Counted from the first letter of the stretch, positions 2,550 through 33,867 are shown. The stretch: DNA of 64,000 nucleotides from an uncultured Pelagibacteraceae bacterium (GCA_902606075.1 CACLEU010000001.1:16356-80355); one strand, 5' to 3'. The notes: generated by a model from the sequence alone, not told the origin. Numbers and translations are program-made.

Positions 2550-2551
2550 AG

Positions 2552-2923: not shown

Positions 2924-2949
2924 AATATTAAATTGATAATGGAAGAATT

Positions 2950-3048: not shown

Positions 3049-3077
3049 ATTAAAACAATAAAAAAAAAGGTATATTA

Positions 3078-18234: not shown

Positions 18235-18293
18235 ATAAAGAATATCAAAATTTAATAAAAATTAGAAATATAATTATTTTTATTATTGTTCAT

Positions 18294-18312
18294 ACCGACA
18301 AGAAACCGACAA
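18294..18312. repeat. Direct repeat ACCGACAA x2 at 11-bp period
   Basis: ACCGACAAGAA-ACCGACAA at 18294 and 18305 in an otherwise very AT-rich spacer. Confidence 0.6.
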
Positions 18313-18330
18313 ATTAAAAAATTTATTCAT

Positions 18331-18942
18331 TTAATTTAAAATATTAATAATACTTATTTTAATAGTTTCACTTATTTTGATGGTCCCTTCTTTATTTGGA
18401 TGAATTCCATCTTTTAGATTTAAGCTTGGATTAAGTGCTACTCCCTCAAGAAGAAATGGGATTAAAGGTAAATTATATTTTTTTGACAATTTCGGATAAA
18501 TATCATCAAACTCTTTTTTATATTTTTTTCCAATAGTACTTGGTGCAACCATACCAGCTAAAATGATTTTAATTTTTTTATTTTTAGCAATATTTATTAT
18601 TTGTTCTAAATTTTTTTTTGTTTCGTCTGGCTGAATTCCCCTGAGCATATCATTAGCTCCTAATCCTAAAATCATTAAATCTATTCCTGGTTCTGATAAA
18701 CTCCAATCAACTCTATTCAATCCACCTGATGACGTACTTCCAGAAACACTTCCATTAATAACTTCAATATTTAAACCAGCTTTCTTAAGATTGTTTTCTA
18801 AAACTATTGATAAATGATGTTCTTTAGGTAATCCATATCCAGCCATCAAACTATCACCAAATAGAACTACCTTTTCTATTGCACTTGCGTTTATGTGCAC
18901 TAGAAAGATTATTAAAATTTTTATAAATATAGTTTTACTCAT
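18331..18942 (-). CDS. tesA: GDSL/SGNH arylesterase (TesA-like)
   Basis: FGDSL, NGSVSGSTS, LGANDMLRG, DGIHPN; start reassigned to ATG 18942 (MSKTIF..., signal peptide). Confidence 0.85.
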   Translation of the reverse strand: MSKTIFIKILIIFLVHINASAIEKVVLFGDSLMAGYGLPKEHHLSIVLENNLKKAGLNIEVINGSVSGSTSSGGLNRVDWSLSEPGIDLMILGLGANDMLRGIQPDETKKNLEQIINIAKNKKIKIILAGMVAPSTIGKKYKKEFDDIYPKLSKKYNLPLIPFLLEGVALNPSLNLKDGIHPNKEGTIKISETIKISIINILN

Positions 18943-19606
18943 GAGTACCCTTCTTAAATTAAAAAAAATAAACCTTAAATACCAAACTGGTAAAGATAAT
19001 ATCAATATTTTAAGGAATATTGATTTAAATATTAAGAAAAAAGAAACTGTTTCTGTTGTTGGGGAAAGTGGCTCAGGAAAAACAAGTTTAATCATGTTAA
19101 TAGGGGGTTTGGAGAAACCTAACTCAGGTAAAATAATTTTCCAGGATCAAGAAATTACAGGTCTTAGTGAAGATGAGGTATCTGAGATTAGAAAGAAAAA
19201 TATTGGAATAATTTTTCAGTCGTTTTATTTAATTCCTAATTATACAGCGGTTGAAAATGTTGCACTTACACTTGAGCTCAATAATTTTAAAAATCCAGAT
19301 AAAGAAGCAAAGATTTTATTAGATCGTTTTGCTTTGAAACATCGTTTTAATAATCTTCCAGGTCAATTATCAGGTGGTGAGCAACAAAGAGTTGCTATCG
19401 CCAGAGCAATTGCAATGAAACCAGAATTAATTTTAGCTGATGAGCCAACTGGAAACTTAGATACTGAAAATTCTATTATGATTGCAAATATTTTATTTAA
19501 ATATGTAAAAGAAGAAGGCTCTTCTTTAATCATGGTAACTCATGACACTAAACTTGCTAATAAAACTAAAAGAAAAATAAAAATTAAAGATGGAAAAATT
19601 AAATAA
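18941..19606 (+). CDS. ABC transporter ATP-binding protein (YbbA/LolD family)
   Basis: GESGSGKT, LSGGEQQRVAIARA, ADEPTGNLD, VTHD; start reassigned to ATG 18941. Confidence 0.92.
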   Translation: MSTLLKLKKINLKYQTGKDNINILRNIDLNIKKKETVSVVGESGSGKTSLIMLIGGLEKPNSGKIIFQDQEITGLSEDEVSEIRKKNIGIIFQSFYLIPNYTAVENVALTLELNNFKNPDKEAKILLDRFALKHRFNNLPGQLSGGEQQRVAIARAIAMKPELILADEPTGNLDTENSIMIANILFKYVKEEGSSLIMVTHDTKLANKTKRKIKIKDGKIK

Positions 19607-22124
19607 TCCTTCAGAATTTAGTTTGATTTTAAAATATGCTTTAAAAGACTTAAGCAGAAATTATTATAAAATATCTAGTATCATTGTTACGCTATTTATA
19701 AGTCTTTTTATCTTAAGTGCTATTTTCACAATTGAAGATAGTCTTAAAAAAGAATTAAATGATAATGCCAAAGCACTTTTAGGTGGAGATTTAGAGATTG
19801 ATTACAATCGTAATGTAGGAGATTTAGATCTAGTTAATCAAGTTAAAGAATTTGCAACTGTTTCTCAAATGATTGAGTTTAGTACTATGCTTTCAACATC
19901 AGGGAGAGAAAAAAATAAATCATTATTTACTAGAATTAAAACTGTGGATGAAAATTATCCTTTATATGGAAATGTTGTTTATGAGCCAATTGGTGCTTAT
20001 GAAAGAATGCAAAGAGAACCTTATTCTATCCTTATCAATGAAAGTTTATCAAAAACCCTTAATATAAAAATTAATGAAAAGGTAAAAGTTCAAGATCAAA
20101 ACTTTACAGTAATTGGAATTATTAAATCAGTACCGGATGTAAGTGGATTTATTGCATTTGGAGATTGGGCTTTAGCGGGAAAACAAACATTAGAAATCTT
20201 GAAACTAAATGGAATTGGAAGCTTTTTAAACTATGAATACAAAGTAAAATTTAACGAAAAAGATAATCCAGAAGAAATCGAAAAACGAATTGAGGAAATT
20301 TTTAAAGACGATCAAAAAGTAAAGCTTAGATATCCTGAAAATTCTGCTAGTGGAATAAAGAGAATAATTAATAATTTTTCTCAATTTTTATCTCTTGTAT
20401 CAATCAGTGCAATGTTAATTGCAGGCATTGGAGTCGCAAATACTCTACTTTCTTTTATCAATCAAAACAATATGTCTATTGCTGTAAGAAAGGCGGTTGG
20501 CTTTTATTCAGGCAATATTAAAACATTATATTACCTTCAGTTATTTATACTTTTATTCATCATCACTGTAGTTGCCTATGGATCAAGTTTTTTAATTGTA
20601 CCAATAGTAGATAAATATCTATCTGATGGATTGGGATTGAATGTTCATCCAGTGTTTTCATTACTTAATTTTTTAAAAATATTTTTAGTGGGTTTGTTAG
20701 TTCTTGTAATTTTTACTATTCCAACAATCAGTTCTATAGATCAAGTAAAAGCCTCTAATTTATTTAGAAACGTATTTCAAAACCTTCAATTTTTTTATTC
20801 TAAGAGATCAGTTGTTCTAAGCTTTTTTTTATTATCTATCTTAATTTTTTTATTCACTATTGGATCTGAACAACCTTCTTATAGCTTGGGTTACTTTGTG
20901 GCTTTTTTTGTTTGTTTAATTGTATTTTTCTTACTTTCAAAATTAATCATTTTTTTTCTTAAAAAATTCAAATCTAGTCCAATAATTTCTTTAAAAGTTT
21001 CAATTAAAAATATTACTCAGACAAAAAGTATAACCCCTATTACAGTTATGTCTCTTGGTCTAGGCGTTACTTTGTTATTAACTTTAGCTTTAGTTGGCAC
21101 AAATTTTCAAAGAGAAATTGCTAAATCTATTCCTGATATTGCACCTGATTATTTCTTTGTAGGTATTCAAAAAGGAGAAAGAGAGAAATTTGAACAAGGT
21201 ATTTTAAATATGGATCCAAGTGCATCTATTGAAATTGTACCAATGGTTTCATCTGGTATAGTAAAAATTAACGGTATTGATCCTAATACTTATATTAAAC
21301 CAGATAATGACAGTTACTGGGTTATTGGTAGTGAACGAAGATCTTCGTGGGTAGAAAACGTGCCTGGAGATAACTTAATTTTAGATGGCGAATGGTGGGA
21401 TTTATCAAAGCCAAATCAACTTCAAATATCTTTAGATTCAAAAGTTGCTAAGGATTTTAACATCCTGTTAGGTGATATCTTTACTTTAAATGTTTATGGA
21501 CGTGAAATTGATGGGAAAGTAGTAAATTTTAGAGAAGTCGATTATCGAGATTTAAGTATCAACTTTGCAATGTTATTTAACCCTCAATTTGCAAAAAATA
21601 TTCCACATGAGTATTTGGCTACTGCAAAATTTAGATCAAATAAGTTTGATGAAACTGAAATGCTTGAAATCATGCCAAGTTTATCAATGATTAAAATTGC
21701 AGATTATTTATCAAAAGTTACAGCCGTTTTAAATAAGGTATTTATTGCGGTTACATTAATTTCAGCAATTACAATTGTTATAGGCTTAATCGTAATTTCA
21801 AGTGCAATTATGGTTCAAGGAAAAGTAAAGGAATATCAAAATTTGGTTTTCAAAATTTTAGGTTTTTCAAAAAAACAAATTATTTTTTCATCTTTAATTG
21901 AATTCGTCATTATCTTTAAATCTGTAATTTTGATTGCAGTATTCTTTGCTGTGATTGGTTCAAAATTTATAATAGAAAATATTTTTGAATTAATGTGGAT
22001 GTTTGACTTTAAGATTATAATTTATTTAGGACTTTCAATTGGTTTTGTTACCTTAGTTTTGATATTATTAACTAACTTAAAATATCTAAATCCTAAGGTT
22101 TATCCTCTAATAAGAAATCAATAA
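19590..22124 (+). CDS. ABC transporter permease (YbbP/FtsX-like, duplicated domain)
   Basis: ALLGGD, YPLYG, two FtsX-like TM sets, PDYFFVGIQ; tesA-ybbAP synteny. Confidence 0.85.
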   Translation: MEKLNNPSEFSLILKYALKDLSRNYYKISSIIVTLFISLFILSAIFTIEDSLKKELNDNAKALLGGDLEIDYNRNVGDLDLVNQVKEFATVSQMIEFSTMLSTSGREKNKSLFTRIKTVDENYPLYGNVVYEPIGAYERMQREPYSILINESLSKTLNIKINEKVKVQDQNFTVIGIIKSVPDVSGFIAFGDWALAGKQTLEILKLNGIGSFLNYEYKVKFNEKDNPEEIEKRIEEIFKDDQKVKLRYPENSASGIKRIINNFSQFLSLVSISAMLIAGIGVANTLLSFINQNNMSIAVRKAVGFYSGNIKTLYYLQLFILLFIITVVAYGSSFLIVPIVDKYLSDGLGLNVHPVFSLLNFLKIFLVGLLVLVIFTIPTISSIDQVKASNLFRNVFQNLQFFYSKRSVVLSFFLLSILIFLFTIGSEQPSYSLGYFVAFFVCLIVFFLLSKLIIFFLKKFKSSPIISLKVSIKNITQTKSITPITVMSLGLGVTLLLTLALVGTNFQREIAKSIPDIAPDYFFVGIQKGEREKFEQGILNMDPSASIEIVPMVSSGIVKINGIDPNTYIKPDNDSYWVIGSERRSSWVENVPGDNLILDGEWWDLSKPNQLQISLDSKVAKDFNILLGDIFTLNVYGREIDGKVVNFREVDYRDLSINFAMLFNPQFAKNIPHEYLATAKFRSNKFDETEMLEIMPSLSMIKIADYLSKVTAVLNKVFIAVTLISAITIVIGLIVISSAIMVQGKVKEYQNLVFKILGFSKKQIIFSSLIEFVIIFKSVILIAVFFAVIGSKFIIENIFELMWMFDFKIIIYLGLSIGFVTLVLILLTNLKYLNPKVYPLIRNQ

Positions 22125-22301
22125 TTAAAATTTTTGAATTTATATATCAAACTCTCGGACCAACAGCCAAACTGACAGATTAGTCACAAATAGTCTACAA
22201 CAAGCTACAAAGCCAAAAAAAGAGAATTAAATTTCGATAACCAAACCTTTTAATTGTTGATTTAATTGACTTTTAACATTAAAAACTTCAGTGATACGAA
22301 T

Positions 22302-22377
22302 GCCCTTGTAGCTCAGCTGGTAGAGCAATTGATTTGTAATCAATAGGTCCGCGGTTCGAATCCGTGCGGGGGCACCA
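22302..22377 (+). tRNA. tRNA-Thr(TGT)
   Basis: GCCCTTGTAGCTCAGCTGGTAGAGCAATTGATTTGTAATCAATAGGTCCGCGGTTCGAATCCGTGCGGGGGCACCA. Confidence 0.97.
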
Positions 22378-22440
22378 TCACTTAATAAAATCAACACTAA
22401 TTATTTTTGTAGAGTTATAGTTTAGTTTAATTTTGTAATC

Positions 22441-22471
22441 GATTGTGCCAGGATTGTGCCAGGATTGTGCC
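22441..22471 (+). repeat. Tandem GATTGTGCCAG x2.8 (putative integrase arm-type sites)
   Basis: GATTGTGCCAG GATTGTGCCAG GATTGTGCC read directly. Confidence 0.85.
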
Positions 22472-22487
22472 GTGATCAAGTAGTCAT

Positions 22488-23033
22488 TTAATCATAATAA
22501 ATGTACTTTAATATTCTATTTGCACTATTTGAACACGGAGATTTAAAACAACCTTCAAAAATTATTCTTGAGTTTTTATTTTCAAAACACGAAATTAAAA
22601 AACCTAAATTGGTATCGCTTGATGCGTCTTCATTACATCCTGCAGATGAGTCGTTCGTATAAAGATTTCTATCAAATTGATGAAACAGATTCTTTGTTGG
22701 TTGTCCATTTCCATAAGTATTATTTAAACCATAAAAGTTAGATATAATTCCACTTACTCTATTAAAATCACTTGAGTTGCCAGCTAATAAAACTTCACAA
22801 GTAGTTTTATCCCAAAGTGCTCTAGCAGTAGAGTTTATTTCACATAAAGCTTTCTCTGAAACCCAAGCTTTATAAATCATTTCAAAATTAGCTCTGCTAG
22901 TAGAAGATTTTGCAGCAGTTGTGTATCCACTATAAGCAACAGTTCCTACAGCAGCAAGGATACCGATGATTGCTACAACGACTAGAAGTTCTATTAATGT
23001 GAAACCCTTGCTATTGAATTTTATTTTTGACAC
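22488..23033 (-). CDS. Type IV pilin-like protein
   Basis: Prepilin motif KG|FTLIELLVVVAIIGILAAVG with Glu5; variable Cys-rich C-terminal region. Confidence 0.9.
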   Translation of the reverse strand: MSKIKFNSKGFTLIELLVVVAIIGILAAVGTVAYSGYTTAAKSSTSRANFEMIYKAWVSEKALCEINSTARALWDKTTCEVLLAGNSSDFNRVSGIISNFYGLNNTYGNGQPTKNLFHQFDRNLYTNDSSAGCNEDASSDTNLGFLISCFENKNSRIIFEGCFKSPCSNSANRILKYIYYD

Positions 23034-23368
23034 TGTAATTTACAAAAAACATTGAGGTCTTTCATAGTTAATCCGCCTCTAATACTTTGTTTGCATAAAT
23101 TTAAACATTCATAATCAATTCCATCTTTTACAAATGTATCTTTTAATGATTTATTATTTTTTGTATTAGTATCAGATCCAAAAACCTTATCTAATAAGTT
23201 TTTAGATTTATTTATAAACCCCTTGTTATTTATCTCATATTCGCTCTGCAAACACAGAACAAAGTCTCTCTTGTTCTCTTCATAATTAAAAATTTTATTG
23301 CAAGTTTCTGCATTAGATTTACCAGCCAACAACAAACCCAGAACCACGATCCCTAAAAGTTTTTTCAT
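23021..23368 (-). CDS. Hypothetical secreted protein with six Cys
   Basis: Signal peptide MKKLLGIVVLGLLLAGKSNA; ECLNLC..FCKLQC. Confidence 0.7.
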   Translation of the reverse strand: MKKLLGIVVLGLLLAGKSNAETCNKIFNYEENKRDFVLCLQSEYEINNKGFINKSKNLLDKVFGSDTNTKNNKSLKDTFVKDGIDYECLNLCKQSIRGGLTMKDLNVFCKLQCQK

Positions 23369-23683
23369 TTAATGATTTGTATAAGCATCCGGATAGTTAG
23401 TTAAATGTTCATCTGAAATTGGTATCATTACAGCACTTTCTACAACAGCACCTGCTTCTCTTCTTTTCTCGGCAAGTTCCTTATCATCTTTAAAAGCTTG
23501 GAGTGCTTCCATATTTGGAAATTGCATTACTGTATGAAGTTTTGTCGGGTCATCTTTTTGTGTGCCTGCAAAAACAAATTTTATTCCATGCTCTTTTAAT
23601 TTTCCATCCTGTGCATAGACCATCTCTTTCCATGTTTTAAATCCTTTAGTAATTGTAATTTCACCTTTTACTAATATTGCCAT
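23369..23683 (-). CDS. Small dimeric alpha-beta barrel protein (DUF3764-like)
   Basis: FKTW..GIK..GTQKDDPTK..MQFPNMEAL..RREAGA pattern; strong SD (AAGGAG) upstream. Confidence 0.6.
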   Translation of the reverse strand: MAILVKGEITITKGFKTWKEMVYAQDGKLKEHGIKFVFAGTQKDDPTKLHTVMQFPNMEALQAFKDDKELAEKRREAGAVVESAVMIPISDEHLTNYPDAYTNH

Positions 23684-23736
23684 ATGAATCTCCTTATTTA
23701 ATTTTTAAAATTATTTAATTATTAAAACCCTACCAC

Positions 23737-23754
23737 TGTGCCAGGATTGTGACC
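23737..23754 (+). repeat. TGTGCCAGGAT-TGTGACC, second copy of the Thr-element repeat
   Basis: Same unit and orientation as 22441-22471; 53 bp before the tRNA fragment. Confidence 0.8.
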
Positions 23755-23807
23755 ATACCAAATATATTTTAAAAATATTGTTGCAAACAAATGTTTATTT
23801 AAACTTT

Positions 23808-23850
23808 AGCAATTGATTTGTAATCAATAGGTCCGCAGTTCGAGTCCATG
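23808..23850 (+). pseudogene. Partial tRNA-Thr copy (att-like)
   Basis: AGCAATTGATTTGTAATCAATAGGTCCGC 29-bp exact match, then degenerate T-arm; no acceptor stem or CCA. Confidence 0.9.
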
Positions 23851-23869
23851 AGGTCACAATAATAAAAAT

Positions 23870-24556
23870 TTAAAATTTATACACTTCTTTTAGTATTTTT
23901 TTTTTTTTAAAGTCAGGTTCTCTTCCAAAAATATCAAAAAAAATGATTTTCAAAATATCTTTATAGTGTCGAAATCCCTTTTCATTACCGATATTAGAAA
24001 ATTCAAAACTCGATAAGTTTATTTTTGAAGGGTCTTTAATTGAAGATATTTTAATGAAAGCTGTTCCATTATTGATAAAAATTTTTAATATTAAAAAGTT
24101 TTTATCTTTTTTTTTTTGAGGCCATATTTTATCAGGTAATTTTTCATTAATCTTTTTTGCAACTCCTATATTATCTTCAATAATAATTTTTTCTTTATTT
24201 TCATCATTCCCTTGAGTTTCATTTTTTTTTACTACTAACTCTAAATAGAAATTTGGATCTTCTATTACTAAATTATTAATAATAATCAATTCATCTAAAA
24301 AATATGTCATTAGATCAATATTGAAATTAATTTCATCAGACTCAAAAATATTTTTATAATTAATTGGGTTAGAATTAATTATTTTTAAACCTTTAATATT
24401 TATTAAATTAGGATATTCGAAACTAAATTCCTTAAAAGTTACATCTTTTTCTACCCACTTGGATAATTTATAATTTATATAGCTTCCTATTATTTTGTCA
24501 TGAAATACTACTAAAATTAATATAATTATGGCACTAATTCCAACAATTTTTTTCAC
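23870..24556 (-). CDS. Hypothetical membrane-anchored protein (AsmA-like beta-rich)
   Basis: N-terminal TM; IKGLKIIN, IIINNLVIEDPNFYLE pattern; GTG start. Confidence 0.55.
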   Translation of the reverse strand: MKKIVGISAIIILILVVFHDKIIGSYINYKLSKWVEKDVTFKEFSFEYPNLINIKGLKIINSNPINYKNIFESDEINFNIDLMTYFLDELIIINNLVIEDPNFYLELVVKKNETQGNDENKEKIIIEDNIGVAKKINEKLPDKIWPQKKKDKNFLILKIFINNGTAFIKISSIKDPSKINLSSFEFSNIGNEKGFRHYKDILKIIFFDIFGREPDFKKKKILKEVYKF

Positions 24557-24557
24557 T

Positions 24558-24640
24558 TTAAAATGTTTCTTTTCTCAATTGTTTTATTTTTATTTGAAGA
24601 CTTCTATTAGAGTCATGAAGTAAATTAAAGTTTATTTTTT
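24558..24640 (-). pseudogene. Relic duplicate of the nadK 3' end
   Basis: 24593-24640 matches 25298-25345 at 45/48; translates KINFNLLHDSNRSLQIKIKQLRKETF* versus nadK KIKFNLLYDSNRSLQKKIKLEQLKNETS*. Confidence 0.88.
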
Positions 24641-25270
24641 GGGTAATTTTAAATAAAAATTTTTAACAAAATTCTTAAAAGTTTTTTTTTTAAAAATAAC
24701 CTTTTTCTCTTCTAATAATTTAAAATTTTCTTTTTTAGTAATCACAGCATATCCAGAACCCTCAAAAAAAAACTCTAAGCTAAAATTCTCTATATTAGAA
24801 TTATAAATTTCTAGAACTTTATTAAAAGTATTATAATTAGTCATAGCAACATAAGAGTTTTCTTTTTTTTTATTAACAACATAAGGTAACCAACTCACAT
24901 CATCTATTATACATATCCCTCCTACTTTTAAAAATTTATAATAATTGAAAAATACTTTTTTTACATGATTTGGTTCATGTAGAGAATCTATAAATAATAT
25001 ATCTAGTGGTTTCTTAATTTTAGGGTTAATTATATCAAATTCATCATCACTAGCTTTAATAAATTCCCATCTTGAATTATTGCTAACTTGTGAACAATCA
25101 ATTATATCAACGGAGATTAAATTACCGTTATTTAGATCACATATTTCTAAGAATATTTTTGTTGAATTTCCTTGAGCTACACCAAGTTCTAATATTTGTA
25201 TGTTATTAATGTTGCTAATCTTTTTTTTTAAAAATTCATGTTTGCTATTTAAAATATTATGATGTCTCAT
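24632..25270 (-). CDS. Class I SAM-dependent methyltransferase (Methyltransf_24-like)
   Basis: ILELGVAQGNST, SVDI, DILFIDSLH, LKVGGICIIDD; likely start MRHH at 25270. Confidence 0.85.
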   Translation of the reverse strand: MRHHNILNSKHEFLKKKISNINNIQILELGVAQGNSTKIFLEICDLNNGNLISVDIIDCSQVSNNSRWEFIKASDDEFDIINPKIKKPLDILFIDSLHEPNHVKKVFFNYYKFLKVGGICIIDDVSWLPYVVNKKKENSYVAMTNYNTFNKVLEIYNSNIENFSLEFFFEGSGYAVITKKENFKLLEEKKVIFKKKTFKNFVKNFYLKLPKK

Positions 25271-26018
25271 TTTTAAGCTGTTCAAGTTTTATTTTTTTTT
25301 GAAGACTTCTATTAGAGTCATATAGTAAATTAAACTTTATTTTTTTATTAATCTTAATAACAATTTTCTTTGCATTGCGAACTTCATTGTTATCAGCTAC
25401 TGCACTGACAGGTCTTTTGATTGGATTTAAGTTATTTATATTTATAACTGATTTATCACTAATAACTTTACCCTTCCATCTTCTTGGTCGAAAAGCACTA
25501 ATTGGTGCAATTGAGAGTTTTTTTGAATTTAAACTTAAAATTGGACCATAAACAGACATATTATAGGCGGTACTTCCAGCTGGAGTAGATACTAAAATTC
25601 CATCAGAGATTAAATTTTTGATAATTTTTTGTTTACCAGAATAAACACTTAAATTTGCAGCTTGTCTACTTTGTCTTAAAATTGACACTTCATTAATTGC
25701 TATATATTTTTTTGTATTATTTTTATTATTCTTAACAGTCATTTCCAATGGAGAAATTGAAACTGTTTTTGATTTAGTAAAATTTCTCACAAAATTTTTT
25801 GATGAAAATTTGTTCATCAAAAAACCATAGTTACCTGAATTTACACCATAAAATAATCTTTTAGATTTTTTATTTTTTTTTAATGTTTGAAGCATAAAAC
25901 CATCGCCCCCAATCACTAATATTGTATTTGATTTTTTTAATTTAATTTTTTTTAATATGTTTAATAAAGATTTTTTAATCCTTAACGAGCTTAAATTTTT
26001 ATCTGAAATAATTTTCAT
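25257..26018 (-). CDS. nadK: NAD kinase
   Basis: GGDGFML, GFL, NE, DGILVSTPAGSTAY. Confidence 0.95.
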   Translation of the reverse strand: MKIISDKNLSSLRIKKSLLNILKKIKLKKSNTILVIGGDGFMLQTLKKNKKSKRLFYGVNSGNYGFLMNKFSSKNFVRNFTKSKTVSISPLEMTVKNNKNNTKKYIAINEVSILRQSRQAANLSVYSGKQKIIKNLISDGILVSTPAGSTAYNMSVYGPILSLNSKKLSIAPISAFRPRRWKGKVISDKSVININNLNPIKRPVSAVADNNEVRNAKKIVIKINKKIKFNLLYDSNRSLQKKIKLEQLKNETS

Positions 26019-26022
26019 TTAA

Positions 26023-26991
26023 TTAAATATATTTACGATCTTTAACTAATTTCAATTTTTTTTCCACACAAGAATAAAACAAACATCCAAAACTAACACT
26101 TAAAATTAAACAGATTATTGATAAAAATGTATTATTAATTTCTACATTTAAAAACGTAACTACTTTATAGAAACCAGGAATTGTTAACATTTGTAAAAGA
26201 TATATGCTATATGAAGCGTCACCTAAATATAAAAAAAACTTATTTTTAATCTGTTTACTGTATATTGCGCCAATAACAATCAATGTAGCAGGCAATCCCC
26301 AAATTATGAATCTATCATAATTAATTATTTTACCGTTTGTATTAATTGACATAATTAAAGTCAAAATTCCCACGGTTAAAATTATATGTCCAAGATGATG
26401 ATTAACTTTTCTAAATTTAACATATAAATATCCCGTGATTACACCTAAAAAAAATTCTAAAAAATACAATTTATAACTAACTAAAAAAATAAGTAACATC
26501 ATGAAAAAAATTGCAACAACAATTCTATTTAATGTTTTGAAATATAAAGCTATACCAAAAATTAAATAAAACAACATTTCCCACTCTAATGTCCATCCCA
26601 AATTGATTATCGGATTAGAATTATTCAATAATTGAGAAATGAACAAAAAAGATGAAACAGAACTTTTAACATCTACTAAAAGGGATCTAAATATACCAGG
26701 AAAAAGTAAGTATATAATTATAATAAAACTGGTTATTAACCAGTACACTGGAACAATTCTTAAAATTCTTGATTTATAAAATTTAAAAATTGTTTTTGGA
26801 TTGATAGCTTGAGTGTAAATCATAACAAACCCTGAGATTACAAAAAAAATATCAACACCATTTGCTCCCCAATCTCCTACAATAGGAAATATAATAGTTG
26901 GTTTTCCATAGCTTTCACCTCCTATCAAAACATGCAAGTAAACCACGTTAATTGCAGCAAAAGCTCTAAGAAGCTGAAGGTTATTTATCAT
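26023..26991 (-). CDS. Membrane O-acyltransferase (acyltransferase-3/OafA family)
   Basis: LQLLRAFAA..H, GVDIFFVISGF, RILRIVPVYW, WTLEWEMLFY, GDASYSIYL. Confidence 0.9.
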   Translation of the reverse strand: MINNLQLLRAFAAINVVYLHVLIGGESYGKPTIIFPIVGDWGANGVDIFFVISGFVMIYTQAINPKTIFKFYKSRILRIVPVYWLITSFIIIIYLLFPGIFRSLLVDVKSSVSSFLFISQLLNNSNPIINLGWTLEWEMLFYLIFGIALYFKTLNRIVVAIFFMMLLIFLVSYKLYFLEFFLGVITGYLYVKFRKVNHHLGHIILTVGILTLIMSINTNGKIINYDRFIIWGLPATLIVIGAIYSKQIKNKFFLYLGDASYSIYLLQMLTIPGFYKVVTFLNVEINNTFLSIICLILSVSFGCLFYSCVEKKLKLVKDRKYI

Positions 26992-26996
26992 CGAAG

Positions 26997-27082
26997 TGGT
27001 GCCCTCGGCCAGACTCGAACTGGCACTCCATAAATGGCAAGGATTTTAAGTCCTTTGTGTCTACCAATTTCACCACGAGGGC
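26997..27082 (-). tRNA. tRNA-Leu(TAA)
   Basis: GCCCTCGTGGTGAAATTGGTAGACACAAAGGACTTAAAATCCTT, variable arm, GTTCGAGTC, GGGCACCA; 86 nt. Confidence 0.97.
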
Positions 27083-27166
27083 ATTAATGAATTTCATGAG
27101 TATTTATGCTAATATTTATAATTCAACAAGTGTAATAAGTAAAATTTTTTTTATTTATCTCTTTAG

Positions 27167-27184
27167 GTACAAGTCTAGTACAAG
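27167..27184 (+). repeat. GTACAAG-N4-GTACAAG putative arm-site pair
   Basis: GTACAAGTCTAGTACAAG; related pairs at 29376/29387, 29434/29445, 29702/29713 and 31092/31103. Confidence 0.75.
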
Positions 27185-27222
27185 TTTTCCCATATTATCC
27201 TATAGAGTTTTAATTAAATTTA

Positions 27223-29352
27223 TTAAAATGTTCTTGCAACTTCTATGGTTGCACCATAATCAGGTATTTCTTTCATCAAGCTATAATTTGAGCTCATTCT
27301 GATATCAAAACCATTTAAATCTCTCTTATAACTTAAAGATGCATTGTCATTATCTAAACTCATAGCATATTCGATATCGTCAGTTGGTATATAACCAAAA
27401 CCTAAATATAAAGTATCGCTATGAGCATTATCACTTTGATTTCTTTCATAGATAGTCATTACAGAAAAACCGTTTTCAGTAATTAAATCAAATCCAATGT
27501 TTGCTCTTATATTCTTTGAGTCTTGATCAATAGATTTAGTATATTCTGTAGTTTCAGAAAGATAACGATATTTGGCATCTGAAGATGGGCTAAAATCTAA
27601 ACCAATCTCTAAACCTCCATGTGGTTTAAATGTCATAGTGTTTAAATTAATAATATCGCTTACTGTAAAACCGGTGGATATCATTCCTGTTTCAATTATT
27701 TGTTTATTGTACACCAATGCAGTAGTTCCTTTTTCTCTATATTTGGATAGTTCTGTATAGCTAAGATCAATTCTTAAATTAGGTACAATATTAAAGTTTT
27801 CTTTTTTATATGTTTTTAAATAATTAATTGATCCGAATACTTGTGCTCCGTCTCTTTCTCCAGTTCTAGTATATAAATCACCTTTTCTAACATGATCAGT
27901 CTTCAAAGTACTAATTCCAAGAATACCCTCAGTAAATCTTTTATCATCATGAAGAAAAGTTCCATAAAGAGATAAACTATAAGAATCAGTATCTAAAGAT
28001 GTCCCAGATGTACCTATATCAACATCATCATTGCCAAATCGAAGAGCATATCCATACATTTTGTTTTCACTAATTTTTTTATCCATTCCAATTGTAATAC
28101 CTTTACTATCAATTTTTTTTGATGATGAAGAAGATGTGTCACCTACTCTACCAACACTAACGCTACCTTCGCTCCAAAATGACCAATTATCAGATATTTT
28201 ATCTAAAATATCATTTGTTTTGTTAGATACTGGAATAACTTTTGAAAGAGATGCCATCATTGAATTTGAAAAGTTAAATTTAATATTTTGATTACTTAAT
28301 TTATCTTCATTTCTATAACGTCTTAACCAATACATACGATTAAGAACTGGAGTGCTTGCTTGAATAGCAATTTGTTTAGCTGTTGCTGTTTGAGATTCAA
28401 TTGAACTTGAAATATCTTTACCTTCATCACTTGTATCAGCCGGATCATCACAAGCACCATCAACTACACTCCAATTACAGCTTAGATTAAATTCAAAAAC
28501 TTTATTATTGGTATTACCAATGAAAAACATTTTACTTCCATCATGACTAAACGCAACTTCTCTTGCATCAGTATCATGAGAATTTACATTATAGGTACCT
28601 TCAAGGGAGTAAGTAGAAACATCATAAGGTGTAGTTAATTTAAACTGAGAAACCTGATTGGTTGTATTATCAATGGTATACATTTTAGTACCATCGTGAT
28701 TAAAAGTAACTCCATCTAAGTAAGTGTGAAAAGAACTTAAGTCTTCAGTATTAAGATGTGTAACTCCTGAGCTAAGATCAAATGCTGTATCTAGTGAATA
28801 TTCATTAAGGTGATGTTGAGTATTATTTCCTACACCAGCAATAATCATTCTGGTACCATCATTATTAAATGCAACGGAAGTTAATCTTACTTCTTTACTA
28901 GAAACATCATATCTACCCTCAAGTGAAGCAGTTGAAACATCAAATGCAGTGGTTAGTGACCAGTAATCTATATTATTAGAACCATGGTCAGCAATAAACA
29001 TTTTTGTTCCATCGTTATTAAACACTACTTGGTTTGGTATAAGTGTATCACCACCTCCATGAGTTGCTACTACATGTACTGTTTTAGTATTGTTTAAGGT
29101 TGCTGTTGAAATATCATAAGCAGTAGTTAATACATATTCGTAAACATTATCAGCTTGTAGGCCACCACCATTCTTATCATATTGTGTAGTATACATTTTG
29201 GTACCATCATTATTAAATGTTAATCCAAATTCTCCGTTGTCTGCATTTATTGATTTACTTCGTACAAAGGTTGGCTCCGCTATAGCTTTAGAAAGAAATA
29301 AAGCTAAAAAAAATACAATATAATGAATTTTAAAAAATTTTTTTACAACCAT
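27223..29352 (-). CDS. Autotransporter-like outer membrane protein with five ~50-aa beta-propeller-type repeats
   Basis: Signal peptide; 5 repeats FNNDGTKM..Y.LTTA(F/Y)DVSTA; C-terminal beta barrel starting WSFWSEG, terminal Phe. Confidence 0.82.
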   Translation of the reverse strand: MVVKKFFKIHYIVFFLALFLSKAIAEPTFVRSKSINADNGEFGLTFNNDGTKMYTTQYDKNGGGLQADNVYEYVLTTAYDISTATLNNTKTVHVVATHGGGDTLIPNQVVFNNDGTKMFIADHGSNNIDYWSLTTAFDVSTASLEGRYDVSSKEVRLTSVAFNNDGTRMIIAGVGNNTQHHLNEYSLDTAFDLSSGVTHLNTEDLSSFHTYLDGVTFNHDGTKMYTIDNTTNQVSQFKLTTPYDVSTYSLEGTYNVNSHDTDAREVAFSHDGSKMFFIGNTNNKVFEFNLSCNWSVVDGACDDPADTSDEGKDISSSIESQTATAKQIAIQASTPVLNRMYWLRRYRNEDKLSNQNIKFNFSNSMMASLSKVIPVSNKTNDILDKISDNWSFWSEGSVSVGRVGDTSSSSSKKIDSKGITIGMDKKISENKMYGYALRFGNDDVDIGTSGTSLDTDSYSLSLYGTFLHDDKRFTEGILGISTLKTDHVRKGDLYTRTGERDGAQVFGSINYLKTYKKENFNIVPNLRIDLSYTELSKYREKGTTALVYNKQIIETGMISTGFTVSDIINLNTMTFKPHGGLEIGLDFSPSSDAKYRYLSETTEYTKSIDQDSKNIRANIGFDLITENGFSVMTIYERNQSDNAHSDTLYLGFGYIPTDDIEYAMSLDNDNASLSYKRDLNGFDIRMSSNYSLMKEIPDYGATIEVARTF

Positions 29353-29433
29353 TGATGTATTATAAACTTATTAAAGTTCAGGTTTAGTGTAAGACTACCC
29401 AGAATGGGTTATGGCTTTATTTTATCCCTTTAA

Positions 29434-29460
29434 GTACAAGTTCAGTACAAGTCTGTTCAA
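29434..29460 (+). repeat. GTACAAG x2 plus degenerate third copy
   Basis: GTACAAGTTCA GTACAAGTCT GTTCAA. Confidence 0.75.
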
Positions 29461-29530
29461 ATTAATTAAGTTTTATTTTCTAATCTTAATAGAAAGCTAA
29501 ATTAAAGTTATGTGATTTTATAGGAGGTTT

Positions 29531-29560
29531 TAGACTGTCTTGGACTACTATGGACTGACT
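29531..29560 (+). repeat. 10-bp-period T(A/G)GACT repeats
   Basis: TAGACTGTCT TGGACTACTA TGGACTGACT. Confidence 0.7.
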
Positions 29561-29579
29561 TTAACTTCTATCCCTCGGC

Positions 29580-29618
29580 TTTTAAGTCCTTTGTGTCTAC
29601 CAATTTCACCACGAGGGC
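29580..29618 (-). pseudogene. 5' half of tRNA-Leu (att-like); its upstream region is also duplicated to ~29720
   Basis: Identical to 27044-27082; ends at the anticodon loop; no T-arm or CCA. Confidence 0.92.
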
Positions 29619-29754
29619 ATTAATGAATTTCATGAGTGTTTATGCTAATATTTATAATTCAACAAGAGGAATAAGTAAAATTTTTTATTTTATCTCTCTA
29701 TGTACGAGGTATGTACGAGAGATCCTATATAATCCCTCATAAAATCATAAATAA

Positions 29755-31071
29755 TTAATTTAATAAATATTTATTTACGTTTTCCTTAAATATTTTTAAA
29801 GTTTTTTCGTAAGCAACTTGATTTTTTTTATTAAGTGATGATCCGTATCCCCAACAAATTTTCATTGAGTGATCATAAAGTTTCTTGTCTCCTTTATTAC
29901 CAAACCATCCACCATTAGCTGAAATATTAAACCATTTACTTTTATCTTTAGGTCTTACCCAAATCTGTCCATTATTATCAGTATATACTCTGCATTCAGA
30001 ACTTATCTTTATTCCATCTTCAAAATTAGATCCTGTCTTATCATAAAAATGGGTTGTGTTTTTGAAAACAATAATTTGTTTGTTTGTTTTCTTTAGATCT
30101 TTTTGAGTCACAATATATTCTTCACAAAGATTATGTGGTAGATAATCCTTATCGCCCATTAGTATCAATAATGGAGCATCTGTAGTTTTAGTATTCTCAT
30201 AATGATAACAGAAGGGATATAATGCGAGATGTAATTTAAAATTATTTTTTGGTTTGATGACATCTAAATTAAAATAATTTTGAGTTTCAATTGCAACAGT
30301 TCCTCCCCAACTCCACCCCATTATACCAATTTTAGTCGAGTCAACGCTTTTGTTTTTAGATAATATATCTAAAGCTCTTAACGAATCTAAAGCTCCTACA
30401 TGAGGAGATATCCATGATATTTTTTTTGATCTATCATAAAAGTTTTTATCGTAACCTCTTGATTTAAATATAAATGGTTCAAATGTGGCAATACACATGT
30501 CATGCAATATATGTTTGTAATCAGTCATAATTCTTCCACCTGAATGGTGAATCAAAAACATAACCGGATATTTTTTTATACCTTTACATTTTTTTTGGAC
30601 AGGAAATATAAGGTTACCAAAGCCTTTAATCTTTTTATTATCTTCAAGTCCATCAAATATATCATCTTGTATAAAGATATCATTTGTATTAAATTTTATT
30701 TTTTTAACTTTGCTTTTCGCTTTTTTGCAATCTGTAATGACATCTTCAATTTTCTTGTTACCATATTTTTTATTAATTGAATTTTTGTGGTAGTGAGTGC
30801 TTTTGACTGGAAATGCATCATTGTGAGTAGCGTACCAACGCCAATCATTTTTTTTTCCTTTTCTTAAATGAACACTTAATAATTCTCCTTTTGATAAAGG
30901 GATTGTGATTGAAGCCCACATTCCATTATCCTTAACCCATTCGCTGGTTATTCTAACATTTTGGTTTACTTTACAAACTTCCAATATTTCATTTTTTAAC
31001 CATTTAAATGGAACAGCGTAAGAATTGGTAGAAAATATACTAAAAATTAAAAGATAATATAAAATTTTCAT
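29755..31071 (-). CDS. Secreted alpha/beta hydrolase (dienelactone hydrolase-like) with N-terminal extra domain
   Basis: Signal peptide, HHSGG, KIGIMGWSWGG nucleophile elbow, ALYPFC, LILMGDKD, TTHFYD. Confidence 0.8.
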   Translation of the reverse strand: MKILYYLLIFSIFSTNSYAVPFKWLKNEILEVCKVNQNVRITSEWVKDNGMWASITIPLSKGELLSVHLRKGKKNDWRWYATHNDAFPVKSTHYHKNSINKKYGNKKIEDVITDCKKAKSKVKKIKFNTNDIFIQDDIFDGLEDNKKIKGFGNLIFPVQKKCKGIKKYPVMFLIHHSGGRIMTDYKHILHDMCIATFEPFIFKSRGYDKNFYDRSKKISWISPHVGALDSLRALDILSKNKSVDSTKIGIMGWSWGGTVAIETQNYFNLDVIKPKNNFKLHLALYPFCYHYENTKTTDAPLLILMGDKDYLPHNLCEEYIVTQKDLKKTNKQIIVFKNTTHFYDKTGSNFEDGIKISSECRVYTDNNGQIWVRPKDKSKWFNISANGGWFGNKGDKKLYDHSMKICWGYGSSLNKKNQVAYEKTLKIFKENVNKYLLN

Positions 31072-31179
31072 ATTTAATTTTATACTTTTCTGTGTGAGAC
31101 TTGTACGAGAATCTTAGAAATCATTAAACAAAGAATGATTAATTTTATTATTTTGATCATTATTCTAGTTTTCTATAAT

Positions 31180-33867
31180 TTATCCGGTATTTTTTATTGC
31201 TGCTGATATACCTGCTATGCTAGTCATTAAGGCATCATTTAAATTATTGTTATTTATTTTATTATTGTTTTTTTTGGTTAATTTCATCATTACTGTGGCT
31301 TGTAATATGTTTAAAACTTCAGAATATACATTTCTTATAATTGCGGGACCTCTAAATGCTTTTCTTTGTTTTAAAATTTCAGATGGTGTAATATTGTGGT
31401 TAAGTTTTTTTAAGGCTTCAAATTGGAATCTAAGTTTTTTTCCAACTCTTTTTAAGTCAATATCTGCTAAATTATCTTCATAAATTTTTGAAATCTCCGG
31501 ATCAACTTTTGATATAACCATGTCCAATAAGTCCATTGTAGAATTAAAAAAAGGCCAGTTTTTTTCCATATCGATTAATGTTTTTTTAAATTTTTTTATT
31601 GATGAATATCTTAATGCTTCAGCAGTTCCTAACCATGCCGGTAACATAAGTCTTATTTGAGTCCAAGCAAACACCCAGGGTATTGCTCTAAGACCTTTAA
31701 TATTATCTAAATTTTTTCTTTTAGATGGACGAGAACCGATAGATAATTTCCCTAACGCTAAATGAGGAGTAACTGTTTTAAAGTATCGGATAAATTCTGT
31801 ACTTGATGTTAAATTTTTTCTATAAGAACTTTTAGATATATCAGACATGCTTTCTATCAAATTTCTCCAATTTTCTTTTGGTTGTGGAGGAGGCATTAAA
31901 GTAGCTAACATCACAGAACTTATGTAACTACATAAATTATATTTAGCTATAGGCTCATAACCGTATTTTTGTTGTATCACTTCACCTTGATCGGTAATTC
32001 TTATTTTTCCATTAACTGAACCAGGCGGTTGAGATCTAAGAGTAGCCTGTATTGGTCCGCCTCCCCTTCCAGCTGAACCACCTCTTCCATGGAAAAAAGA
32101 TAATTTTACTTTAAATTTTTTTGATGACGCTAAAATTTCTTCTTGTAATTTATATTGGTGCCACCCTGCACATAGTTTACCTGCGTCTTTACTAGAATCT
32201 GAATAACCAATCATGATTTCTTGTTCATTATTAATCAAATTTCGGTACCAACCTAATTTAAATAAAGTAGACATGATATCGCTTCCACTTATCAAATCAT
32301 CTAAGGTTTCAAACAAAGGTACTACTCTTAATTTATCTTTAATGTTTGCTTCTTTTTGTAAAAGGATTACTGAGAGAATATCAGAAGCTGAGGATGTCAT
32401 AGATATAATATAAGCTCCTAAGCATTCTTTTGGTTGACTTGCTAAAGCTTTAAAAGTTGACCAAACTTCTAAATTTTCTCTATCTTTGAATTGAAAACTA
32501 TTAATAAAATTTTTACCCCTTATTCTTTTAGTCAAAAACTTTATCTTTTCTAGCTCAGTCCAAGAATAATAGTTCTTCTTGAATTTTCTTTTTATTATCT
32601 CAGCAATAAGTTTCGTATGCCGGGATGACTCTTGTCTAATGTCTAATCTAGCAAGATTAATACCAAAGCATTTTGCTCTTCTCATTAAGTCTAATAGTTC
32701 TCCACTTGCAATGTTTTGATTTTGTGACTGTTCCAAAGACTCTCTAACAACTCTCAATGGTTTTAAAATATCTTCCTTTGAGGAAATAAGTTCTTTTTGA
32801 TTTAGAGGTTTTTTTTGAACCAAATGTCGTTCTATCATCCTATGAGTTCTTCTCATTCTATCTCTTAGCGGTCTCAGATAAACTCTATAAGGTTCATATG
32901 AGTGACCTGTATATTTTAATATTTTTTTGGAACATTTTTGCATCGAAAAGGATCTAATTAATTTTGTTAAAGATTTTTCATAAAGTTTTGCAGCTTCCCA
33001 TCTCGATAAAAGCAAAACCTCCTCAGTAACCTTAGACGTTACGAAAGGATTTCCATCTCTGTCACCACCCATCCATGAACCAAATTCAATAGGATTAAAA
33101 TTTTTTGGTAAATTTTTTTTCATATTTTTTACAAATATTTCATTAAGTCTTCTGTAAACTTTTGGAATAGTGTCCCATAAACTATCCTCTATTATTGCTA
33201 ATCCCCATCTAGCTTCATCAAATGGAGATGGTTTATATCTTTTAAGTTCATCTGTGTTCCAGATTATTGTTATTTCATCAAACATTTTTTTGTCTAATAC
33301 TTTTATTTTTGAAGGATATTTCTGGAGTAAATTTCTTTGTTCCAATATTTCAGTTAATGCATGATATTTTTGAATTAAGGTTCTTCTCTTGACCTCTGTT
33401 GGATGAGCAGTTAAAACAATACCGATATTAAGTCTTTTTGCTAAATCATAAATTGTTTTATTTGAAATATTCTTATTTTTAAAAAAACTCTCAAATATTT
33501 CTTCAATAAATATATTTTTATTTTTTTTTCTTTTCACGGAATTTTCGTATTGGTCTAGAGTTCTAGAAGCATCCACAGACTCTGCCAAATTATACAAATT
33601 CATAAAATGATTGTATGCTCTAGTTAGTTTGAGTAGATCTTTAGGATTTTGTTTTTTAATTTCTCTAGACAAATTTGCGAATGGGGTTTTTTTATTTTTA
33701 TTTGCGGTATTAGCTTTTGATAAAAGCCTTGTTTTTTCAACTAGTTTAAAAAAATTAATTCCTTCTTGTTCTTTTATAACTTTTCCTAAAATATTTCCTA
33801 AATACCTAACATCATTTCTTAAACTTTTAGTGGGGATTCTCTCATAATAAAGATCTCTTTTTATCAT
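31180..33867 (-). CDS. ppc: Phosphoenolpyruvate carboxylase
   Basis: VLTAHPT, SWMGGDRDGNP, MIGYSDSSKDAG, FHGRGG, LRAIPW, C-terminal KNTG. Confidence 0.97.
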   Translation of the reverse strand: MIKRDLYYERIPTKSLRNDVRYLGNILGKVIKEQEGINFFKLVEKTRLLSKANTANKNKKTPFANLSREIKKQNPKDLLKLTRAYNHFMNLYNLAESVDASRTLDQYENSVKRKKNKNIFIEEIFESFFKNKNISNKTIYDLAKRLNIGIVLTAHPTEVKRRTLIQKYHALTEILEQRNLLQKYPSKIKVLDKKMFDEITIIWNTDELKRYKPSPFDEARWGLAIIEDSLWDTIPKVYRRLNEIFVKNMKKNLPKNFNPIEFGSWMGGDRDGNPFVTSKVTEEVLLLSRWEAAKLYEKSLTKLIRSFSMQKCSKKILKYTGHSYEPYRVYLRPLRDRMRRTHRMIERHLVQKKPLNQKELISSKEDILKPLRVVRESLEQSQNQNIASGELLDLMRRAKCFGINLARLDIRQESSRHTKLIAEIIKRKFKKNYYSWTELEKIKFLTKRIRGKNFINSFQFKDRENLEVWSTFKALASQPKECLGAYIISMTSSASDILSVILLQKEANIKDKLRVVPLFETLDDLISGSDIMSTLFKLGWYRNLINNEQEIMIGYSDSSKDAGKLCAGWHQYKLQEEILASSKKFKVKLSFFHGRGGSAGRGGGPIQATLRSQPPGSVNGKIRITDQGEVIQQKYGYEPIAKYNLCSYISSVMLATLMPPPQPKENWRNLIESMSDISKSSYRKNLTSSTEFIRYFKTVTPHLALGKLSIGSRPSKRKNLDNIKGLRAIPWVFAWTQIRLMLPAWLGTAEALRYSSIKKFKKTLIDMEKNWPFFNSTMDLLDMVISKVDPEISKIYEDNLADIDLKRVGKKLRFQFEALKKLNHNITPSEILKQRKAFRGPAIIRNVYSEVLNILQATVMMKLTKKNNNKINNNNLNDALMTSIAGISAAIKNTG

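Follow-up and report, generated by a model that had tools for sequence, protein, structure and literature searches.

The window analysed here is a stretch of 64,000 nucleotides of SAR11-type DNA (~29% GC) from an uncultured Pelagibacteraceae bacterium (GCA_902606075.1, CACLEU010000001.1:16356-80355). Between positions 22302 and 31110, two neighbouring transfer RNA (tRNA) genes, tRNA-Thr(UGU) and tRNA-Leu(UAA), carry small gene cassettes, which contain a few cargo genes bounded by a duplicated part of the tRNA gene and by tandem words repeated inside both ends, i.e. the architecture of attachment (att) sites around genes that include no integrase. The assembly has a completeness of 76% and a total length of 825 kb, spread over 37 contigs, and parts of the stretch are present in seawater and marine metagenomes according to a listing of sequencing runs. 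The tRNAs were placed by ARAGORN and Rfam, the repeats by a direct-repeat search and the cargo families by Pfam; the features are collected in Table 1.

At the tRNA-Thr gene, a 46-nt segment that takes in the entire anticodon stem-loop is found again in direct orientation 1484 nt further on, with 91% identity. Next to the intact gene, GATTGTGCCAG occurs twice in tandem (22441-22462), and a further copy that differs at 2 positions comes directly behind (2.8 repeats overall). Words of the same place and style are found in 59 relatives and in the integrase-linked attP of L289, a contig of the IMG/VR collection that is described below; furthermore, the DUF3764 gene of the unit has the place and the orientation of the int gene of L289. 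The partial tRNA copy of the window is decayed, as it has 4 mismatches and ends at position 68, whereas relatives keep 54 nt at 100%.

At the tRNA-Leu gene, the direct repeat is longer (27041-27155 and 29577-29691, 115 nt, 95% identity, spacing 2536) and comprises tRNA positions 1-39, up to the 3' edge of the anticodon loop, and 73 nt of upstream leader. The pattern GTACRAG-N4-GTACRAG has three matches in the 64-kb window (27167, 29434 and 29702), all of them in arms, with 0 expected from 100 shuffles; a single GTACGAG lies at 31103. The second of the two Leu cassettes is truncated, since no tRNA fragment is found between its distal arm remnant and the ppc gene (31180-33867). Both the distal tRNA fragment and the core-proximal half of the arm have been lost.

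Pfam detects no integrase (PF00589), excisionase, replication or capsid family between 22302 and 31110, and the sole PF00589 match in this 76%-complete assembly is a divergent Xer-like protein encoded on another contig. An earlier sequence-only reading of this DNA had claimed that tRNA segments including the anticodon loop are duplicated at both tRNAs, that words with an 11-bp period lie inside both ends of the units and that no integrase, excisionase, replication or capsid gene is present. The two direct repeats, the scan that places the Leu words in the arms only and the Pfam results agree with it on all these points. Its description of the units as att-complete stands in general and fails for two ends of the window itself, the decayed Thr attR and the truncated second Leu cassette.

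Three other origins of the repeats were considered and rejected. An integron is contradicted by the lack of IntI and by junctions made of tRNA fragments and direct repeats; the Rfam scan of the region gives the two tRNAs only, attC folding having not been formally tested. The repeats are tRNA segments of 40-115 nt, which excludes the target-site duplication of a transposon, and chance repeats are excluded by shuffles and permutations.

Table 1. Features of the Thr unit and of the two Leu cassettes, in positions of the window
Feature	Position	Strand	Basis or remark
tRNA-Thr(UGU), intact	22302..22377	+	ARAGORN, Rfam
Core common to distal copy, tRNA positions 23-68, attL side	22324-22369	+	repeat search
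P' arm tandem words, 11-bp period: GATTGTGCCAG x2 + GATTGTGCCGT	22441..22473	+	first word 63 nt past tRNA
Cargo: 181-aa type IV pilin-like protein, N-terminal methylation motif (N_methyl)	22488..23033	-	Pfam
Cargo: 115-aa protein, no Pfam family	23021..23368	-	signal-peptide-like N-terminus, judged by eye
Cargo: 104-aa DUF3764 protein	23369..23683	-	Pfam; first gene behind P arm
P arm words CACTGTGCCAG / GATTGTGACCA	23734..23755	+	end 52 nt ahead of partial tRNA
Partial tRNA-Thr copy, positions 23-68, attR side	23808..23853	+	91%, 29 nt exact, 3' end decayed
tRNA-Leu(UAA), intact; first 39 nt = core common to distal copy	26997..27082	-	ARAGORN, Rfam
Cassette 1 proximal arm: conserved 73-nt leader before tRNA, AGAGATAAAT-type box, tandem words	27083..27184	-	
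Cassette 1 proximal words GTACAAG-N4-GTACAAG (ACTTGTAC in tRNA direction)	27167-27184		
Cassette 1 cargo: 709-aa autotransporter, co-directional with tRNA	27223..29352	-	Pfam
Cassette 1 distal arm: box + tandem words (29434-29451), then AT-rich spacer	29416..29576	-	
Cassette 1 distal arm: three (T/A)GGACT-type words, 10-bp phase, adjoining core	29531-29556	-	
tRNA-Leu 5' half copy + second 73-nt leader = cassette 1/2 junction	29577..29691	-	repeat search
Cassette 2 proximal words GTACGAG-N4-GTACGAG, word type differing from cassette 1	29702..29719	-	
Cassette 2 cargo: 438-aa alpha/beta hydrolase (S9/DLH-like)	29755..31071	-	Pfam
Cassette 2 distal arm remnant GTGTGAG / GTACGAG	31092..31110	-	

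Arm words and cargo of the cassettes among relatives

The ancestral order is provided by the empty site of a genome of the same genus (G058), in which a SpoU-like gene, tRNA-Thr, nadK (-), tRNA-Leu (-) and a gene encoding a 135-aa protein follow each other. The same junctions were compared in six genomes of this genus and in four genomes of two other genera; besides the empty site, all of them carry different genes, such as a 1.4-kb unit with a trypsin-like protease, a 6-kb unit that encodes an entire type I restriction-modification system, a carbamoyltransferase with SxtJ and a GDSL-like protein, or proteins without known family. No integrase is found in any unit of these ten genomes. The Thr copies of the relatives begin at tRNA position 23 or 28/29 and reach the 3' end of the gene, and their Leu copies always correspond to positions 1-39. 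The loci thus combine variable genes at a conserved tRNA with internal partial repeats of this tRNA, as additive flexible genomic islands of the SAR11 gMED type do. The sequence-only reading had anticipated both a variable cargo at identical junctions, which is now observed in three genera, and the stacking of units in arrays, which is seen in the Leu as well as in the Thr locus sets.

These sets were obtained by scanning contigs from metagenomes for the point at which the tRNA-Leu half meets the conserved left arm (at least 120 Leu loci) and by scanning one genome per species for the type-A junction of tRNA-Thr (59 loci, all from Pelagibacteraceae and all chosen on this one junction type). 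Searches by tblastn and phmmer with 17 SAR11 and pelagiphage integrases as queries reveal no integrase in the Leu loci, about 90 of which include sufficient downstream sequence, or in the 59 Thr loci. The Pfam tallies of 151 cargo open reading frames (ORFs) do not include any integrase family either, this statement covering for the Thr set the 25 listed among 40 matched families. The cassettes have a median size of 1.4-1.6 kb (range 0.65-4.6 kb) and mostly carry one or two ORFs of at least 90 aa. These 151 ORFs encode pilins, trypsin-like proteases, autotransporters, polysaccharide lyases and DUF3764 proteins, as well as restriction or defence nucleases (DpnI, McrB-like, Mrr, HNH) and a C5 methylase.

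The arm words differ from unit to unit and match within units. At the first 12 junctions, examined by eye, each unit has its own word, identical at both ends, except for a loose match in the Thr unit of G050 (AGTGTGGTCAG in one arm, ACTGTACCCAG/ATTGTGACCAT in the other). The words read by eye are GATTGTGCCAG, ATTGTTGTCAG, TGTAGTGAATT and TGTAGTCTTTT for Thr and, in the direction of the tRNA, ACTTGTAC, ACCAGCACA, ACTTGGACA and ACTAGAAGA for Leu. In the whole Leu set, a perfect tandem with an 11-bp period is located 125-145 nt from the core in nearly all the loci that are long enough, and about 20 word types are found, with the consensus AC-NNNN-RC-A. The left-arm word of 29 complete Leu cassettes is present in the right arm with no mismatch (23 cassettes) or a single one (6 cassettes), whereas non-cognate pairs display 2.36 mismatches on average; the observed mean was reached in 0 of 2000 permutations, a result whose significance is overstated because related sequences are not independent. 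In 45 Thr cassettes, the signal is weaker (1.40 mismatches within units versus 2.24 for non-cognate pairs; 0 of 2000 permutations, with the same overstatement).

Over 94 unique copies of the Leu left arm, which corresponds to the distal arm of cassette 1 in the window, the first 125 nt are conserved at 80-99%, while four positions per word drop to 40-59%. Conservation stops just past the AGAGATAA-type box behind the words, and the boundary of the arm is uniform. The word type is not linked to the cargo, as 83 loci fall into 66 cargo clusters and the commonest word is associated with 11 different cargoes. Globally, the words behave like the arm-type sites of integrases and would be bound by such enzymes. 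Two hallmarks of the att sites of heterobivalent integrases are present, namely a tRNA core at the anticodon loop and element-specific arm repeats on both sides; the third, an integrase encoded by the element, is missing.

The orientation of the cargo is nearly fixed: 55 of 56 Leu ORFs point with the tRNA and 92 of 95 Thr ORFs against it, which is in both cases the orientation of int in the integrase-bearing relatives. This could be explained if the arms were chiefly expression modules, in which the former int promoter would now serve the cargo and the leader would serve the tRNA, the words being operator-like or devoid of any role in recombination. The cargo is nearly always located downstream of, and co-oriented with, the arm that holds the int start in autonomous relatives, and the 73-nt leader always lies ahead of the reconstituted tRNA-Leu. 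However, this explanation does not account for the same word in both arms or for the unlike words of neighbouring units; in addition, a simple scan found no promoter consensus in the leader, and internal leaders that drive no tRNA are equally conserved. It is thus highly unlikely.

The cassettes have also spread between lineages. The exact 104-aa DUF3764 protein is found in 197 blocks of the public collection, always behind the P arm and with varying downstream partners, and its DNA is 96-98% identical to that of the window where the flanking SpoU and nadK genes are only 72-77% identical. This cassette gene has therefore apparently been transferred recently across diverged lineages, by a route that could be of any kind. 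The 709-aa autotransporter of the first Leu cassette has a 98.7% identical copy in a close relative, and no record of the exact protein was found in the public collection. Where a locus contains one insert only, native chromosome (the end of the neighbouring core gene) lies ahead of the outermost tRNA-Leu half, the order predicted by integration at attB. In arrays, all 13 internal junctions that were read join units with unlike words. The same word on both sides of one core, which would hint at a circle, is found at none of these 13 junctions; with about 20 word types, such an absence is likely to occur by chance.

Other arrangements were observed in this region and in related genomes. In a close relative (L334, a contig of AG-461-M18, compared with window positions 19590-29352), the MacB-like gene is 95% and the autotransporter 98.7% identical to those of the window, nadK, between the two tRNAs, is only 74% identical and the Thr site holds two cassettes with partly different genes; the segment between the tRNAs has been replaced wholesale. 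Within the window, an 82-nt direct repeat (24581-24662 and 25286-25367, 85%) surrounds the gene of a 217-aa methyltransferase; as the repeat is the 3' end of nadK, this gene seems to have entered at the end of nadK, and no tRNA fragment accompanies it. A 228-aa ORF (23870-24556) and an acyltransferase gene (26023-26991) are also missing from the empty-site genome. About 5.3 kb (16834-22300) separate the SpoU-like gene from tRNA-Thr, and the two adjoin in most genomes of the genus; this segment encodes proteins of 472, 254 and 237 aa and an 844-aa MacB/FtsX-like protein, and a homologue of the 472-aa gene lies on the opposite side of tRNA-Thr in another genome (G023).

Outside the window, on contig C4 of the same genome (G000, ~2330-3500), tRNA-Lys(UUU) is flanked on both sides by units of the same design. 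A 3' partial copy of this tRNA (positions 32-76) lies ~760 bp downstream, with a GTGCACA tandem in both arms, and on the upstream side a 5' partial copy (positions 1-39) precedes a unit of 249 nt without ORF, i.e. an 'empty' cassette reduced to its arms. Lastly, one locus of G041 located ~50 kb from its tRNA-Leu (L048) and seven metagenome loci (L105, L112, L117, L152, L186, L199 and L206) display an odd junction, in which the tRNA-Leu 5' half, leader and arm words are followed by ...ACCATGG..., the start of a protein gene, instead of the remainder of the tRNA. These junctions may correspond either to a second, non-tRNA anchor of the same cassette arrays or to a rearrangement.

Integrase-bearing counterparts and origin of the units

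Elements that share the cores and the arm layout of the cassettes and that encode an integrase are known for both tRNAs. A 21-kb element integrated at tRNA-Leu in G036 encodes a 549-aa divergent tyrosine integrase, a VapE/DUF5906 primase-helicase and a trypsin-like protease. Its tRNA half is followed by three phased words and then by CTTACACACC x2 at the start of int, and CTTACACACC x2 is found again 65-90 nt before the intact tRNA. Large integrases of this kind (530-570 aa) are encoded by 9 of 301 SAR11 genomes. Their identified sites are tRNA-Leu (G036), tRNA-Arg(tct) (two genomes) and a sequence resembling the start of a small ORF (three genomes), two further loci being unassigned; wherever the site is identified, a 5' partial copy of it immediately precedes the integrase gene.

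Three IMG/VR contigs (L292, L305 and L307), which encode a 545-aa integrase and an AEP/DUF5906 primase, can be read as circles of 7.7-8.9 kb, given their 99-123-nt terminal repeats. Their attP successively includes the words and box, the leader, tRNA-Leu positions 1-39 and a triplet of phased AGTCTC words; after a spacer that is as long as that of the cassettes, the same words and box return within the first 20 codons of int. Each circle has its own word (ACTAGGGTC, ACTAGGATC or ACTAGTAAT), and relatives at another core use ACTCGAA, ACTAGATCA, ACTATAGCA or ACTAGAGAC. Some of these words are identical to cassette word types or differ from them by one base. In other members of the large-integrase family (L071, L073, L076, L316-L318 and L320), the core is a conserved sequence that resembles the first ~60 nt of a small ORF (MNKENASKLW...) and ends with GGAAGCTGGCGATTATTTGG. 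Their arms follow the same design; as the words sit in the first codons of int, the word type alters the N-terminus of the integrase.

For tRNA-Thr, the IMG/VR contig L289 encodes a 328-aa integrase, an AAA_25 protein and TerS, i.e. a satellite-like gene set. In its attP, the 3' part of tRNA-Thr is flanked on either side by ATTGCGGACAG x2, a word similar in style to GATTGTGCCAG; this attP is collinear with the attP rebuilt from the Thr ends of the window. Among 301 SAR11 genomes, 29 encode an integrase of this type, located at different tRNAs (tRNA-Asn, Met, Arg and Val); none of the 12 best SAR11 matches is located at tRNA-Thr(tgt). An array also exists at tRNA-Met in one genome (L327 in G197), where such an integrase is accompanied by two partial copies of this tRNA (positions 31-77 and 34-77).

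Phages use the same Leu site. The duplicated 5' part of tRNA-Leu and the attP core of HTVC105P agree at 100% over 45 nt, and HTVC105P-like podophages have their own words, GTGTCCT or GTGGCGT, which co-vary across both sides. In IMG/VR podophage contigs (L293-L311), a tandem of three words precedes the tRNA-Leu core and a single word lies ~150 nt downstream of it. The part of the pelagiphage integration paper that was accessible (10.1101/410191) makes no mention of arm-type sites in attPs of this kind.

Apart from this 45-nt core of HTVC105P and uvMED, BLAST of the arms against phage records gives tRNA-length matches only. IMG/VR, which contains only contigs called viral, has no match to the Leu left-arm junction or to the Thr type-A junction, and this content makes the result little informative. 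The exact Thr words of the window are also without match in IMG/VR, and ACTTGTAC-N3-ACTTGTAC matches 47 of its contigs, about the number due to chance, none of which has an adjoining box or tRNA-Leu core. The proposal that integrase-linked attPs would share the cores and arms of the units is thus borne out for the cores and the arm layout of both tRNAs and not for the words of the window.

A resident chromosomal enzyme, either a divergent Xer-like recombinase or another unlinked recombinase, could alternatively move the cassettes, which would then be true analogues of integron cassettes. A Xer-like PF00589 protein of ~310-340 aa is indeed encoded by 51 of 61 SAR11 genomes searched, including complete ones that bear cassettes, usually without any other integrase. 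However, a single conserved enzyme would need to read about 20 word types, and the att layout, including words inside the 5' end of int, is that of the satellite integrases. Furthermore, Xer enzymes act at dif-like sites and are not known to use arm-type sites. Such a mechanism is most improbable.

The explanation favoured here, with a probability of roughly 0.55, is that the units are att-complete but non-autonomous and descend from marine elements of the phage-satellite or tycheposon-like kind; their movement would probably take place in trans. Several points weigh against it. No integrase-linked attP with exactly the words of the window was found in the IMG/VR scans, and the integrase-bearing elements that were found differ in arm sequence from the abundant cassette family, with which they have core and layout in common. 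The decayed Thr attR and the truncated second Leu cassette suggest that at least these ends of the window are old. The permutation tests overstate the matching of words in both sets, and this matching is by itself no proof of present function, since it could be passed on by an autonomous parent. In addition, a promoter in the 73-nt leader is only conjectural, as a simple scan called no sigma-70 promoter there.

Alternatively, the units may be immobile remnants, i.e. integrase-bearing satellites or tycheposon-like elements that lost int and replication genes by deletion under genome streamlining, that now spread by homologous recombination only, anchored by the tRNA genes and the conserved arm modules, and whose words are inherited and functionless. 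Elements with a collinear att layout, homologous arms and similar cargo (trypsin-like protease) occupy the same site, and two of the four outer ends in the window (Thr attR and second Leu cassette) are decayed. The 74% identity of nadK in the close relative, between flanks at 95-99%, shows replacement by homologous recombination in this region, and degraded elements have been put forward in the literature to account for the islands of SAR11 and Prochlorococcus (10.64898/2026.04.03.716430; 10.1101/2020.12.28.424599). However, no int or int fragment is found in the ~90 members of the Leu-arm family with sufficient downstream sequence, and their arm boundary is uniform. About 270 nt of non-coding arm per cassette are kept at 80-99% identity in spite of the minimal spacers of these genomes. 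Moreover, frequent recombination over conserved modules should mix the words, whereas 23 of 29 pairs are exact, and the cargo nearly always has the place and orientation of int. An origin as remnants is less likely than the favoured explanation. Cassettes that were recently made and are not yet decayed and cassettes that are kept because they are in use both fit these data.

Proposed mechanism and comparison with known systems

In the favoured explanation, heterobivalent tyrosine integrases would catalyse site-specific integration, with a crossover in or beside the anticodon loop; their arm-binding domain would contact the tandem words and their catalytic domains the tRNA core, so that the word sequence would set which integrase variant can assemble on a given unit. 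One integrase family would swap the 3' part of tRNA-Thr, and another the 5' half of tRNA-Leu, bringing a new leader with it. The resulting units would have the form attL - cargo - attR, in which one to three cargo genes replace the int, replication and packaging genes, in the orientation of int. The parents would be integrase-bearing circles of 7.7-9 kb of the phage-satellite, VEIME (virion-encapsidated integrative mobile element) or tycheposon-like type, and the three phased words beside the core may be the seat of an excisionase-like or bending factor. New units would enter at the intact tRNA and push the older ones outward, leading to arrays whose newest member adjoins the gene. Excision and integration would most likely be carried out in trans by rare integrase-bearing elements or phages that visit SAR11 cells, and the units may still be mobile in this way; alternatively, mobilization in cis could occur once a unit has accreted beside an autonomous relative. 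Their spread is probably aided by homologous recombination between the tRNA and arm modules, which are conserved.

More tentatively, the cassettes may form an integron-like economy without resident integrases, in which hundreds of different 1-3-gene cassettes with complete attL/attR sites circulate in SAR11 populations. Here the hypervariable words (about 20 types for tRNA-Leu alone) would be addresses, each type being mobilized in trans by a matching variant of the rare satellite integrases, and diversifying selection on the words would allow neighbouring cassettes to be excised independently. SAR11 is the most abundant marine bacterium and its genomes are described as nearly free of mobile elements; how it exchanges flexible genes is an open question, to which the usual answers are homologous recombination or degraded phages. 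If the proposed explanation is true, a widespread pool of cassettes would be a concrete and testable route for the exchange of single genes encoding surface proteins, secreted proteases or restriction and defence functions. Furthermore, the arm specificity of integrases could be studied on the variants that nature provides as hypervariable words in a conserved arm.

The sequence-only reading presented the units as a candidate new system, which is overstated: partial tRNA repeats around cassettes, tycheposon remnants, phage satellites and the concept of cis-mobilizable elements (CIMEs) are already in print. No published description was found of matched, complete arm sites on integrase-less units or of about 20 word types within a conserved arm, nor of the independence of words and cargo, of the fixed cargo orientation or of the 5'-half mode associated with a family of large integrases.

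Integrons and clusters of attC sites lacking integron-integrases (CALINs) are promoter-dependent arrays of 1-3-gene cassettes in one orientation, which enter at one end, and many of them are devoid of integrase. Unlike these, the units described here have double-stranded tRNA cores and arm sites, with two arms per cassette instead of one folded attC, and neither IntI nor attI is involved. The CIMEs of streptococcal integrative and conjugative elements consist of attL and attR around cargo, derive from integrase-bearing elements, carry no recombination or transfer genes and are mobilized after accretion with an autonomous partner. The cassettes resemble them in having arms collinear with those of integrase-bearing elements and no integrase of their own; they differ in that CIMEs depend on conjugative elements in Firmicutes, with one att specificity per family, whereas the partners here would be satellite- or phage-like and about 20 word types exist (for a review of the CIME concept, see PMC5704250).

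In SAR11 itself, partial tRNA repeats have been reported to mark the insertion of cassettes in islands without mobile-element genes (Molina-Pardines et al. 2025, PMC11796062). For these gMED islands, the part of the paper that was accessible gives the repeats only, without arm repeats, matching of ends, integrase counterparts or the tRNA-Leu 5'-half mode. Experiments have demonstrated the integration of a pelagiphage at tRNA-Leu(TAA) with a 5' half that comes from the phage (Zhao et al., 10.1101/410191); pelagiphages of the HTVC019P type are, however, whole 40-kb podophages with a ~300-aa integrase, and neither their arm words nor their flanks are related to the cassette sequences. Phage deposition at tRNA-bounded regions is proposed in a preprint of 2026 that covers 135 Pelagibacter genomes and that, in the part available, does not mention such units (10.64898/2026.04.03.716430).

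The tycheposons of Prochlorococcus, which form tandem integrations split by partial tRNAs and leave degenerate remnants (Hackl et al., 10.1101/2020.12.28.424599), are likewise tRNA-targeted tyrosine-recombinase elements that bring cargo to the islands of a streamlined marine bacterium. They are defined by an integrase and a replication module, which the units of the window do not have; in the same paper, integrase-less pieces are regarded as decay, and neither matched complete arm sites nor a repertoire of word types is described. Phage satellites of Pelagibacter have been reported to carry serine-protease and HNH cargo (Eppley et al. 2022, PMC9618062). As integrative satellites do, the units have a partial tRNA at their far end, but the integrase and the primase/helicase module are absent from those of the window. 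VEIMEs (here L289 and L292) encode an integrase together with replication proteins, in some cases also TerS, and occur in virions, whereas the units of the window are limited to 1.5-2.5 kb without these genes. Nevertheless, VEIMEs and cassettes share the same tRNA cores, arm layout and SAR11 hosts, as well as cargo encoding periplasmic serine proteases and HNH or restriction nucleases, and their arm sequences are diverged homologues.

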